In this document: piece by piece, positions 527 through 5,710 of the stretch | Layout of the letters: every line of letters starts with the position of its first letter | How positions within the stretch are numbered: the first letter of the stretch is position 1 | IMG/VR virus record: IMGVR_UViG_2690316152_000004 | Location: 1 to 5,813 of that record | From: a virus | Taxonomy: Duplodnaviria > Heunggongvirae > Uroviricota > Caudoviricetes | DNA length: 5,813 nucleotides | Direction: 5' to 3' (one strand) | Notes under the pieces: model-generated | The model's input: only the letters and a program-made list of their open reading frames with translations | Told to the model about the DNA's origin: nothing | Databases searched by the model: none | Made by a program: the position numbers and the translations under genes

Positions 527-602
527 TGGTGGCCCTTGCTGGATTTGAACCAGCGACCTGGCGATTATGAGTCGCTCGCTCTCACCACTGAGCTAAAGGG
601 CC
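527..602 (-). tRNA. tRNA-Ile2 (anticodon CAU, lysidine type; formally CAT, so Met cannot be excluded from sequence alone)
   Basis: Reverse complement is GGCCCTTTAGCTCAGTGGTGAGAGCGAGCGACTCATAATCGCCAGGTCGCTGGTTCAAATCCAGCAAGGGCCACCA, 76 nt, with a perfect 7-bp acceptor stem, anticodon loop CTCATAA and T-loop TTCAAAT. It is closely similar to E. coli ileX/ileY-type tRNA-Ile2 as I recall it, not to elongator or initiator tRNA-Met. Confidence 0.88.
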
Positions 603-2290: not shown

Positions 2291-2833
2291 TTATCGAAAT
2301 GAATCGTGCATAGGTACATAAAGCATGTGTTCAGCCACGGCTAACCAACCTGCAATACGTTTCTCACATGTGCTGAAACACCATTCCGGGTGAGTACGAT
2401 TTAAACATTCTGCCATTTTTCTCTTACTCATTCCCCGTCCTTCGTACCTTTGCCGGAGAATATTGATTAGCCCGGGATATTCCCCAAGCACCTCACTGAT
2501 AACGCGATCAATAATCAACGCCTCTGTGTCTGTACAATGTGACAACCAGCTCTTCTGCTTCCCTCTGGTCATATCCCGAAAAAATGCCTCAAGTTCCGGT
2601 TTTTCCAGCCCGGATTTCTTCATGCTGCGTAAAACCTCATTAACTGCTGTTTTCGTCAGCTTTTTCGAAACCAGTAACCGGTTAAACATATTTCCGGATT
2701 TATCCCCACCGATATACGACCACCGCCCCCACATCCGTAATTTCCCCTGGATCCAGACTGCTTCCAGCGTGTTCAGGCGTAAATGTTCGCCGCTTTTGCC
2801 TGTAATTTCCGGATATATCATATTTACGCTCAC
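2291..2833 (-). CDS. Putative late-gene antitermination protein Q-like (180 aa)
   Basis: It lies immediately downstream of rusA with a GTGA stop/start overlap, and an alternative ATG is at 2821. It is followed by an intrinsic terminator, the classical Q to tR' arrangement. The N-terminal WGRW motif (LRMWGRWSYIGG) resembles the WGAW motif of Q21/QuuD-type antiterminators. The family call is from memory and position, not a search. Confidence 0.6.
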   Translation of the reverse strand: MSVNMIYPEITGKSGEHLRLNTLEAVWIQGKLRMWGRWSYIGGDKSGNMFNRLLVSKKLTKTAVNEVLRSMKKSGLEKPELEAFFRDMTRGKQKSWLSHCTDTEALIIDRVISEVLGEYPGLINILRQRYEGRGMSKRKMAECLNRTHPEWCFSTCEKRIAGWLAVAEHMLYVPMHDSFR

Positions 2834-3189
2834 TCACTCTCAATTTTGTAAATCTTCACACCCAGCCGTCCACCAGATACTGGCTGACCACGTACAATAT
2901 TGATTTCATCAAACTGCTCATCGTCCATTAGCACCCCCGCATGCGTCAGCGCATCCAGCGGCGCTTTCAGAATATTGTCCAGGTCACGGCGGCGCTTATC
3001 CGGTGGCTCGGCAATAATCTTTATCGCCAGCCTTCCGGACAGGTTTAATTTCAGCCGCTGCTGGCGAACAATAAGTGCCACATCCCGGCGATAACGCTCA
3101 CCGGCTTTTGATACAAAATATGTGCTGCCACGACGTCGCCAGTAGGTGTTCACCGTCGGCGGGTAAGGCAAAACAAACTCTATACGCAT
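2830..3189 (-). CDS. rusA: Crossover junction endodeoxyribonuclease RusA (Holliday junction resolvase), 119 aa
   Basis: ATG at 3189 with SD AAGAGG about 7 nt upstream; TGA at 2830. The translation carries RusA hallmarks (PPTVNTYW, DKRRRDLDNILKAPLDALTHAGVLMDDEQ), matching the remembered E. coli RusA motifs PDRRRRDLDN...DAL...DD. Confidence 0.92.
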   Translation of the reverse strand: MRIEFVLPYPPTVNTYWRRRGSTYFVSKAGERYRRDVALIVRQQRLKLNLSGRLAIKIIAEPPDKRRRDLDNILKAPLDALTHAGVLMDDEQFDEINIVRGQPVSGGRLGVKIYKIESE

Positions 3190-3201
3190 CAGTAACCTCT
3201 T

Positions 3202-4125
3202 TTACCCGAGCACGCCGGTTGCAAAGGCGTGATCAAGAAAACGAAAAATTAAATCAACCTGGGAACCATGCTTTTCTTCGAACGCCAGCGGATCCGCATG
3301 AAGCTCGTTGTGATGCTCCCGACACAGCGGTAGCGTGAAAATATCGTGGGATTTTGTTCCCATTCCGCCCTGACCATGACCAATCAGATGATGAGGATCG
3401 TCCGCTGGCTTACCACAACACGCACACGGCTGTGTCTTTACCCAGCGTGTGTATTTCTCATTTACCCAGCGGCGACGTTTAGGTCGTTTCATGAAGGATT
3501 CCGGAGACTCCGGATCAACGGCAATGCTTACCACCGTCTTTTCCTGTGGCGGGTTTTGCTGGTGGGCGTGAGGCAGCGGCGCAAGATTTTTTGTGCGCTG
3601 TTTCAGGATGCTGGTGGCTGTCTGTTCTCCCGGTATGATGTCGCTTTCGCGGTACACCGAGCGGATTTTTTCCGCACGTAACCCCAGAGAACGACGTAAT
3701 GCTGCCTCTGGTAGCGCATCCGCCACCTGATTGCAGACCGCCCACCAGGATAATTCACCCAGAGATAATTCCCGCTCCTGCGTGCCATTCATTGCATGGC
3801 GTATGACGTCAATCATCCATGCTGACAAATTTTGGTGAGCAAGTTGCCCGAGTGATTCGGAGGTCTGGTCACGCAACTGGTTGTCGCAGTGCCAGCACAA
3901 CACCATTGCGCCGGTACCATAACGGTGAATGACAGTTTCGCTGTGGTGATAATCGCCGTGTGGCCACTGGCAGGATTTAATATGGCGCAACAGCCAGTCA
4001 GACAATGCACCAGCACCACCAGCAGCACGAATCACTCGTTCGTCGCTGAAAAATGGCAGCAATGTTTTGTCTTCCACCAGCGGATGGCGAACGGCAGGAA
4101 CGACCCCGGACGGCAGATTACGCAT
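3202..4125 (-). CDS. ydfU: YdfU-like DUF968 protein with HNH-type Cys/His motifs, downstream copy (native C-terminus, N-terminus removed by the duplication junction)
   Basis: TAA at 3202. The first in-frame ATG after the duplication junction is at 4125..4123 (MRNLPSGVV...), giving 307 aa. The track's longer 345-aa form starts at TTG 4239 and reads the upstream copy's 3' end out of frame, so it is unlikely. C-terminal motif: CACCGKPADDPHHLIGHGQGG...CREHHNELH. N-terminal module: CQWPHGDYHH...CWHCDNQ. The YdfU/DUF968 assignment is by length, motif and Qin-like synteny (ydfU-rem-hokD), from memory. Confidence 0.7.
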   Translation of the reverse strand: MRNLPSGVVPAVRHPLVEDKTLLPFFSDERVIRAAGGAGALSDWLLRHIKSCQWPHGDYHHSETVIHRYGTGAMVLCWHCDNQLRDQTSESLGQLAHQNLSAWMIDVIRHAMNGTQERELSLGELSWWAVCNQVADALPEAALRRSLGLRAEKIRSVYRESDIIPGEQTATSILKQRTKNLAPLPHAHQQNPPQEKTVVSIAVDPESPESFMKRPKRRRWVNEKYTRWVKTQPCACCGKPADDPHHLIGHGQGGMGTKSHDIFTLPLCREHHNELHADPLAFEEKHGSQVDLIFRFLDHAFATGVLG

Positions 4126-4981
4126 GCTTTTCTTCGAACGCCAGCGGATCCGCATGAAGCTCGTTGTGATGCTCCCGACACAGCGGTAGCGTGAAAATAT
4201 CGTGGGATTTTGTTCCCATTCCGCCCTGACCATGACCAATCAGATGATGAGGATCGTCCGCTGGCTTACCACAACACGCACACGGCTGTGTCTTTACCCA
4301 GCGTGTGTATTTCTCATTTACCCAGCGGCGACGTTTAGGTCGTTTCATGAAGGATTCCGGAGACTCCGGATCAACGGCAATGCTGACCACCGTCTTTTCC
4401 TGTGGTGGGTTCTGTTGCTGGTGGGTGTGAGGCGGTAGCGCAATATTTTTTGTGCGCTGCTTCAGTATGCTGGTGGCGGTCTGCTCTCCCGGCACGATGT
4501 CGCTTTCACGGTACATTGAGCGGATTTTTTCCGCACGCCCCCCCAGCGAACGACGTAATACCGCTTCCGGTAGCGCGTCCGCCACCTGATTGCGGACCGC
4601 CCACCAGGATAATTCAGCCAAAGATAATTCACGCTCCTGCGTACCGCTTATTGCGTGACCGATGACGTCAATCATCCATGCTGACAGGTTTTGATGAGCA
4701 AGTTGCTCGAGTGATTCGGATGTCTGGTCACGCAGCTGGTTGTCGCAGTGCCAGCACAACACCATTGCGCCGGTACCATAACGGTGAATGACAGTTTCGC
4801 TGTGATGATAATCGCCGTGTGGCCACTGGCAGGATTTAATATGGCGCAACAGCCAGTCAGACAATGCACCAGCACCACCAGCAGCACGAATCACTCGTTC
4901 GTCGCTGAAAAATGGCAGCAATGTTTTGTCTTCCACCAGCGGATGGCGAACGGCAGGAACGACCCCGGACGGCAGATTACG
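3267..4981. repeat. Head-to-tail tandem duplication: two units of about 856 and 859 bp (3267-4122 and 4123-4981) inside the ydfU-like gene
   Basis: CATGCTTTTC occurs at 3267, 4123 and 4982. The units are identical for the first ~262 bp, differ at about 45 positions plus one 3-bp indel across the central ~350 bp, and show a single difference in the last ~240 bp. Confidence 0.9.
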
Positions 4982-5107
4982 CATGCTTTTCGGTTCCGGC
5001 TCCACCAGTACCCGGGTATTGTGAAATACCTGCATGGATTCACGACCTGGCTTAAGGGCCACCAGCCCGAGTTCCGGTACCAGAACAGGTCGAAGTAATA
5101 CCCGCAC
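4118..5107 (-). CDS. YdfU-like DUF968 protein, upstream copy (native N-terminus, C-terminus truncated at the duplication junction); possibly a pseudogene
   Basis: GTG at 5107 is preceded by a strong SD (TGGAGGT, about 5 nt spacing); an alternative ATG is at 5035. The protein ends ...LAFEEKHA then TAA at 4118, whereas the downstream copy continues ...LAFEEKHGSQVDLIFRFLDHAFATGVLG. Both Cys/His modules are retained. Confidence 0.7.
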   Translation of the reverse strand: MRVLLRPVLVPELGLVALKPGRESMQVFHNTRVLVEPEPKSMRNLPSGVVPAVRHPLVEDKTLLPFFSDERVIRAAGGAGALSDWLLRHIKSCQWPHGDYHHSETVIHRYGTGAMVLCWHCDNQLRDQTSESLEQLAHQNLSAWMIDVIGHAISGTQERELSLAELSWWAVRNQVADALPEAVLRRSLGGRAEKIRSMYRESDIVPGEQTATSILKQRTKNIALPPHTHQQQNPPQEKTVVSIAVDPESPESFMKRPKRRRWVNEKYTRWVKTQPCACCGKPADDPHHLIGHGQGGMGTKSHDIFTLPLCREHHNELHADPLAFEEKHA

Positions 5108-5108
5108 G

Positions 5109-5387
5109 TTACCTCCAGATCCGTTGCTGGAATGTGCGGGACGGACGCGGTGGGCGTTCGGAGTAAGGAAGCCTGACGGAGATTATCCAGTGACGGTAGT
5201 CGAGGCTGAGGGCTTTCTTAATCTCGTATCCGCGCCTGCGGTAACACTGAATCAGCCATTCAGCCTGTTCTTCGGTGCAGGGGTCGTGCTGATACCAGTC
5301 AGATTTGAATGCATGAGAACGCCGCCCGTGCCTGCTGGCAGGGGCGGCAGAGTTATCCGAATTGTAAAATTTGGTATCGTGCGCCAT
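5109..5387 (-). CDS. Small hypothetical protein (92 aa); Rem-like by position between hok and the ydfU-like gene
   Basis: The only in-frame ATG is at 5387..5385; the track start at 5516 is GTG and would place the hok terminator inside the ORF. TAA at 5109 lies 1 nt before the ydfU-like GTG. No motif recognised; the Rem assignment is by synteny with K-12 Qin only. Confidence 0.45.
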   Translation of the reverse strand: MAHDTKFYNSDNSAAPASRHGRRSHAFKSDWYQHDPCTEEQAEWLIQCYRRRGYEIKKALSLDYRHWIISVRLPYSERPPRPSRTFQQRIWR

Positions 5388-5460
5388 CTGTTTTCTCTGC
5401 TGGCGCAGCAGGTGCCAGTTGTTCAGGCTGACGGATGGATTGTAAACCAGAACGACCAGA

Positions 5461-5486
5461 AAAAACAAAACCCGCCGAAGCGGGTT
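5461..5486 (-). terminator. Rho-independent terminator downstream of hok
   Basis: Minus-strand RNA reads AACCCGC-UUCG-GCGGGUU (7-bp perfect stem, UUCG tetraloop; + strand 5469-5486) followed by UUGUUUUU (5461-5468). Confidence 0.7.
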
Positions 5487-5554
5487 AAGTGCGGGTGCGT
5501 TGAGGATGCCTGACACATCAGCGGTGGCGAGGGATTTCTCCCCCGCCTGGTCTC

Positions 5555-5710
5555 TTACTCCTCAGGTTCGTAAGCTGTGAAGACAGCGACCTCCGTCTGG
5601 CCGGTTCGGATTCGTACCTCGCAGAGGTCTTTCCTCGTTACCAGTGCCGTCACTATGACGGTTAAACAGATGACGATCAGGGCGATTAACATCGCCTTTT
5701 GCTGCTTCAT
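5555..5710 (-). CDS. hokD: Hok/Gef-family type I toxin (HokD/RelF-like), 51 aa
   Basis: ATG at 5710 with SD AGGAG about 10 nt upstream. The translation MKQQKAMLIALIVICLTVIVTALVTRKDLCEVRIRTGQTEVAVFTAYEPEE has the Hok single transmembrane helix and the conserved RKxLCE(V/I)R...G..EVA.F.AYE core, and matches my memory of E. coli HokD. The track's 64-aa form is a TTG-initiated in-frame extension. Confidence 0.9.
   Translation of the reverse strand: MKQQKAMLIALIVICLTVIVTALVTRKDLCEVRIRTGQTEVAVFTAYEPEE

Follow-up and report, generated by a model that had tools for sequence, protein, structure and literature searches.

Lambdoid prophages are mosaics, in which recombination takes place at short or diverged homologies. 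Tandem duplications bounded by microhomology are explained by RecA-independent slipped misalignment or by template switching, as in the MMBIR model.

[quoted passage not shown] Members of the family have an Orf-like DNA-binding N-terminal domain fused to a zinc-finger HNH motif, and their genes are often located near recombination genes, e.g., rusA (PMC4118853). A nuclease-like role of the His-Me finger type is putative for DUF968 proteins, judging from family assignment (PMC5714182; PMC4118853).

Tandem units may also be created during genome assembly. GapFiller extends the edges of a gap one nucleotide at a time and, by default, regards it as closed once the extensions overlap by 10 nt or more (PMC3446322; Boetzer and Pirovano, 2012). 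SSPACE and GapFiller were called greedy, with assumptions that can give false joins, and 4–10 misassemblies per genome were reported (PMC5320598; Page et al., 2016).

Here we describe a DUF968 (ydfU-like) gene in which most of the coding sequence appears twice, head to tail, one of the two units carrying a foreign centre. The window, i.e., the whole stretch of DNA that was analysed (5,813 bp), is the entire contig CYBG01000068.1 of the short-read draft GCA_001285145.1.

Prophage context of the locus

The locus corresponds to the nin/Q region of an E. coli lambdoid prophage. The gene order on the minus strand is hokD, a 92-aa ORF, DUF968 (ydfU-like), rusA, a DUF1133/Q-like gene, a 65-aa ORF, a DNA methyltransferase gene and two tRNA genes, so the DUF968 gene is found beside rusA and the antiterminator gene, in a lambdoid nin-region context. 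The left contig end lies inside a TerB-family pseudogene, according to the annotation of relatives; this pseudogene is also present in other lambdoid prophages, e.g., at the CD45 locus. The right contig end (5813) coincides with the start of an IS481-family element in relatives. Both ends are repeat boundaries, the usual stops of short-read assembly, which fits a fragmented assembly of a genome with many prophages.

The two tRNA genes (350–426 and 527–602, minus strand) are located between the TerB-family pseudogene and the methyltransferase gene. One codes for tRNA-Arg (TCT); the other has a CAT anticodon and is called Met by ARAGORN and tRNA-Ile by RefSeq in relatives. An Rfam scan of the window returned these two tRNAs and nothing else; despite the presence of the hokD toxin gene (5555–5710, minus strand, 51 aa in RefSeq relatives), no hok/sok RNA family reached the gathering score in the window. 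A 107-aa ORF at 5190–5513 on the plus strand is antisense to the 92-aa gene and is annotated here and in about 29 other records (e.g., ECO55CA74_09590). It has no Pfam match and overlaps a gene on the opposite strand, and is probably an over-call.

Anatomy of the repeat

Self-comparison of the window has revealed two head-to-tail copies within the DUF968 gene (Table 1), the offset between them being first 856 and then 859 bp. Comparison at a fixed offset was used since the longest period considered by Tandem Repeats Finder is 500, and the repeat was therefore missed by that program. An earlier note, made from the sequence of this DNA, had described two head-to-tail units; these are confirmed, and the repeat runs 10 bp past the ends given there, as the word CATGCTTTTC occurs at 3267, 4123 and 4982. 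Chance cannot account for a repeat of 866 bp with 95% identity.

The two copies share two identical blocks, one of 262 bp (3267–3528 = 4123–4384) and another of 186 bp (3947–4132 = 4806–4991). All 44 substitutions are confined to 3529–3946, with 43 of them within 3529–3876 and a single one at 3946. The sole indel is a 3-bp one at 4412–4414 (CTG on the plus strand), which adds a CAG codon for Gln to the copy located upstream on the coding strand. The centres are about 89% identical between the units. This agrees with the earlier description of 262 identical base pairs, about 240 bp with one SNP, about 350 bp with some 45 changes and one extra Gln. The unit spans the gene from codon 42 (Met) to His327/328 of its 348/349 codons. 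As had been proposed from the sequence, the identical parts encode two Cys/His modules, namely the N-terminal one and the C-terminal HNH-like one, while the divergent part forms the linker between them. The central changes had also been described as mostly synonymous, with both centres looking like functional alleles. The dN/dS ratio, computed as suggested there, is about 0.12 for the centre (30.5 synonymous versus 15.5 non-synonymous changes, 14 amino acid replacements) and supports this view.

The regions to the right and to the left of the centre have no word of 10 nt or more in common except CATGCTTTTC, and no other long-range direct repeat of the gene is as long. This short direct repeat flanks the head-to-tail units and recurs once at the junction, the configuration typical of a microhomology tandem duplication.

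Table 1. Features of the duplicated DUF968 locus (window coordinates).
Feature	Position	Strand	Notes
rusA	2830..3189	-	Directly downstream of the DUF968 gene; lambdoid nin-region context
Downstream ORF, 307 aa from ATG 4125 (CTT85740.1 / WP_053888462.1)	3202..4125	-	Annotated as 317 aa from ATG 4155
Upstream ORF, 329 aa (CTT85745.1)	4118..5107	-	Native GTG start and GGAGG Shine-Dalgarno sequence; centre B inside
Unit 1, downstream copy on the coding strand, resident (A) allele	3267..4132	-	Self-comparison and collapsed-window matches
Unit 2, upstream copy on the coding strand, foreign (B) centre in A-type flanks	4123..4991	-	Self-comparison and allele alignments
Centre A, 418 bp, linker between the two Cys/His modules	3529..3946	-	Identical to the relatives NZ_CP148334.1 and GCA_965181015.1
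Centre B, 421 bp, 44 substitutions and extra CAG at 4412-4414	4385..4805	-	Allele match to CD45 / Z1323HEC0067
CATGCTTTTC, first occurrence, unit start in the single-copy gene	3267..3276	.	Self-comparison
CATGCTTTTC, junction copy, unit 1 end and unit 2 start	4123..4132	.	Homology of exactly 10 bp, mismatched on both sides
CATGCTTTTC, third occurrence, unit end in the single-copy gene	4982..4991	.	Self-comparison

The split gene and its predicted products

The period of the repeat (856/859 bp) is 3n+1 and not a multiple of three. Consequently, the frame is lost at the junction, and two overlapping ORFs take the place of one gene. The internal duplication proposed in the earlier note stands as far as the tandem units are concerned, but it is not an in-frame one, since the 3n+1 unit leaves one ORF of 329 aa and another of 307–317 aa. 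The upstream ORF ends with ...EEKHA and a stop codon, three codons past the start of the junction, and lacks the last 21 residues. The ATG at 4125, located inside the junction 10-mer, overlaps the stop codon of the upstream ORF as ATGCGTAA; the ORF that begins there lacks residues 1–41. A frameshift fusing both ORFs was considered and rejected, as the downstream ORF lies in the +1 frame with respect to the upstream ORF and a slippery context for −1 shifting is absent.

Both ORFs match the Pfam family PF06147 (DUF968), scoring 230.7 and 256.1 bits where 27.8 would suffice. The match covers positions 1–153 of the 171-position profile in the upstream ORF and all of them (1–171) in the downstream one. 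The CACCGK...HHLIGHG...CREHHNELH signature is present in both copies. The match to HNHc_6 reaches 22.4 bits, below the cut-off of 26.6.

Resident allele and single-copy relatives

To compare the locus with its relatives, a collapsed window was used, in which 4123–4981 (859 bp) was removed and 4,954 bp were left. It matches a contig of GCA_965181015.1 at 4755 of 4755 positions; a single SNP separates it from E. coli Z1323HEC0423 (NZ_CP148334.1), and 1–3 SNPs separate it from CYBO01, CYDO01 and CYBW01, assemblies with neighbouring accession prefixes of the CY series. All these relatives carry a single 348-aa gene, which indicates that the single copy is the ancestral state. As the collapsed window corresponds to the single-copy relatives, unit 1 is the resident allele (A).

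At position 2703, within the DUF1133/Q-like gene, a lone T/C difference sets the window apart from both Z1323HEC0423 and 14EC047. The Q-like protein in its T variant is found on approximately 15–22 contigs and served to find clone-mates.

A foreign centre and a second allele in the clone

Alignment of each unit with DUF968 genes of other prophages, recommended in the earlier note, has identified a donor type for centre B, which is CD45-like, and has matched unit 1 together with the flanks to the single-copy locus of the relatives. Over 4380–4810 (431 bp), unit 2 has 100% identity with the DUF968 genes that E. coli CD45 and Z1323HEC0067 carry in other lambdoid prophages. Unit 2 and the CD45 allele agree at every position from the equivalent of 3168 through that of 4035, and unit 2 is A-type, differing from CD45, at the equivalents of 4036, 4040, 4044, 4045, 4054 and 4084. 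Between CD45 and the resident allele, the blocks of identity are 3168–3528 and 3947–4035. Judged against CD45, the B-type tract of unit 2 must end within 4806–4894. The donor-identical tract thus ends inside blocks of identity, as is characteristic of mosaic exchange. Z1323HEC0067 was rejected as the donor: nine SNPs at 3349–3463 of its allele are absent from unit 2, and a CD45-like donor fits better.

The combination of identical flanks with a divergent centre exists already between natural single-copy alleles (CD45 versus the resident one), so no conversion after duplication has to be assumed. Of the proposed conversion with a different prophage allele, therefore, the allele has been found, centre B being that of CD45/Z1323HEC0067, but the post-duplication conversion itself is unnecessary.

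Contigs of clone-mates (99.7–100% identical) stop at 3166, 3308 and 3527/3528, the stop at 3308 being equal to 3168 plus k−1 for an assembly with k=141. Since these breaks coincide with the limits of the 3168–3528 block common to the CD45-like and resident alleles, the clone harbours a second allele. In Z1323HEC0067, a SASA esterase gene is located at a distance of 2.4 kb from the B-type allele; an identical esterase bears the accession CTT86775.1, which belongs to the same series as the proteins of the contig (CTT85726, CTT85740, CTT85745, CTT85751). Its RefSeq accession, WP_053888468, is six away from WP_053888462, unique to the contig. This numbering suggests that the source isolate itself may have a second, B-type prophage. 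No single-copy protein with A flanks and a B centre is on record in the protein collection.

The HNH block starts at a population-wide mosaic boundary, 3528|3529, where short-read E. coli assemblies routinely break. A 108-aa C-terminal fragment of DUF968, corresponding to a contig break at 3528|3529, occupies 247 blocks of the protein-position index and is found in several prophage contexts, with RusA of 119, 123 or 124 aa and different Q genes. In the long contigs of GCA_005392825.1 (locus 2968–4329) and GCA_005395705.1 (locus 3040–4329), DUF968 was called as two genes of 240 and 108 aa. The members of this gene pair are separated by a gap of about 240–310 bp, which represents another disruption of DUF968 near the same boundary.

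Rarity of the junction

The junction was not found in 5,426 complete E. coli genomes, nor in GTDB representatives (one genome per species), IMG/VR, GenBank phages or JGI metagenomes. The junction-specific proteins CTT85745.1 and CTT85740.1/WP_053888462.1 come from one contig only, among approximately 15 billion proteins. Two apparent full-length matches to the junction were rejected, as they represent an internally deleted, frameshifted DUF968 pseudogene, the halves of which are closer together. This pseudogene (757 bp, locus 1136–1892) is located in NZ_CP024245.1 (E. coli O27:H7 B4103-1) and is also present in NZ_CM129890.1. A literature search for the assembly accession GCA_001285145.1 has found no mention of it.

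Origin of the tandem arrangement

We consider it somewhat more probable than an even chance that the tandem is a false placement of two co-resident alleles in the draft assembly and not a real feature of the genome. The isolate would have two lambdoid prophages with DUF968 genes identical in the 3' HNH block and in part of the 5' block, and different in their centres. A short-read pipeline could then set the two centre contigs in series in one scaffold. The gap between them would be filled from both sides, the centre A side growing into the A-type 5' block and the centre B side into the shared 3' block. Closure at the minimum overlap of 10 nt, at CATGCTTTTC, the only 10-mer common to both extensions, would result in an 859-bp false duplication. 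The ENA-style accessions and the British spelling of product names point to the Velvet/SSPACE/GapFiller pipeline of the Sanger Institute, and the junction overlap of exactly 10 nt equals the GapFiller default (n = 10) if this program was indeed used for the assembly. The model assumes that the source isolate carries the second allele and that the junction has no spanning reads.

An assembly chimera had been mentioned in the earlier note as an alternative; with a short-read contig, a singleton structure, a co-resident allele and a 10-nt overlap it is now the likelier reading. Misassemblies at multi-copy prophage genes are, by a rough estimate, many orders of magnitude commoner than real duplications with a paralogue centre, which would be unstable as well. 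The short contig and the contig breaks at paralogues fit a short-read draft of a locus with co-resident near-identical paralogues, a setting in which false duplications may arise. False placement is favoured because the units differ exactly where the alleles differ and are identical where sequence would have been filled in, as the model requires, and because the structure is a singleton, the relatives have a single copy, the extra centre is a natural allele known from elsewhere and a second allele is present in the clone. Several points speak against it, however. SSPACE is designed so that the centre contigs should stay unlinked unless read pairs connect them. If GapFiller tests only suffix against prefix, both extensions have to end on the 10-mer, which is unlikely to happen by chance; a true junction, by contrast, would presumably halt both extensions on the 10-mer, as reads branch there. 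The A-type segment 4036–4132 is present twice and requires two independent gap fills, and the sister assemblies with neighbouring accession prefixes are free of such an error.

A real structure is the less probable reading. In that case a single event of repair or recombination would have involved two prophage alleles sharing a cell, or else the resident prophage and a phage infecting it. Near 4132, a DNA end of the resident gene would switch template to the B allele via the 10-bp microhomology, copy the 3' block, then centre B and the first part of the 5' block, and return by homologous pairing in the 89-bp identical stretch 4806–4894. The gene would gain a net 859 bp, resembling a tandem duplication with a foreign centre, and would be divided into two ORFs. 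Two switches explain everything, including identity to CD45 up to the equivalent of 4035 and the A-type sequence from 4036 on. Such an event is consistent with the single-copy ancestor seen in close relatives, with a unit bounded by the longest long-range direct repeat of the gene with a copy at the junction, and with the presence of the donor allele in the clone. As the protein with A flanks and a B centre is nowhere encoded by a single-copy gene, the combination would be new to this contig. The foreign centre may partly reflect a detection bias, since an assembler shows a duplication of this size only if the copies differ. On the other hand, the structure is a singleton known from one draft contig, the event is rare and has no apparent selective reason, and identical blocks of 262 and 186 bp should be lost fast by homologous recombination. 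Moreover, should the donor prophage persist in the genome, an exact repeat would cover 772 bp of unit 2 and could not have been phased by short inserts, so the contig would be no evidence for linkage. Very improbable, in our opinion, is a real A-A duplication by slippage at the 10-bp repeat, in which the A centres were collapsed and the B centre of the other prophage was mis-threaded into unit 2. It needs only a single common type of mutation, draws on a B allele available in the clone and accounts for the A-type flanks on both sides of unit 2 as well as for the junction on the longest direct repeat. Yet there would be no read pairs to draw the B centre in, this centre being strongly linked to its own flanks, and the expected output is a collapsed duplication.

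Implications

If the tandem is an artefact of assembly, it serves as a warning that mosaic multi-copy prophage genes like DUF968 are routine breakpoints and occasional sites of false duplication in short-read drafts. CTT85745.1 and WP_053888462.1 would then be database noise. If it is real, it constitutes one isolate-specific recombination scar in a prophage gene, which illustrates known mechanisms (microhomology template switching and lambdoid mosaicism) and opens no new question. In that case, one protein devoid of its 21 C-terminal residues would be produced, and possibly another that lacks the first 41. It is conceivable, though less likely than not, that the contig is correct and that one template-switch event turned ydfU into a pair of overlapping paralogues with different linkers, possibly coupled in translation. 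The contig would then provide a snapshot of phage gene duplication and diversification. Even if real, the structure is ordinary and its biological importance is small.

Comparison with known systems

Like other genes of the DUF968/YdfU family, the one studied here has predicted products that belong to PF06147 (both ORFs) and is sited between the hokD side and rusA with the Q-like gene. Unlike them, it is split, one ORF being devoid of the last 21 residues and the other of the first 41.

The false duplications in which scaffolding and gap closing with SSPACE and GapFiller set alternative alleles or paralogues in series (PMC3446322; PMC5320598) are resembled in the short-read contig, the multi-copy gene, the arms differing only between alleles, the 10-nt overlap and the singleton status of the structure. 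The textbook case, however, concerns heterozygous diploids, whereas the "haplotypes" here would be two prophages, and the pipeline is the one suggested by accession style and spelling.

With microhomology tandem duplications and MMBIR products the locus shares the head-to-tail units, the bounding direct repeat with a copy at the junction and the single-copy ancestor. The difference is that one unit here has the centre of a paralogue, which calls for a second, homologous switch, and that the junction is known from a draft assembly. As in lambdoid mosaicism, the exchange tract ends inside identical blocks, and the boundary 3528|3529 recurs in hundreds of genomes. Ordinary mosaicism, however, replaces sequence, while in this locus sequence would be added in tandem.
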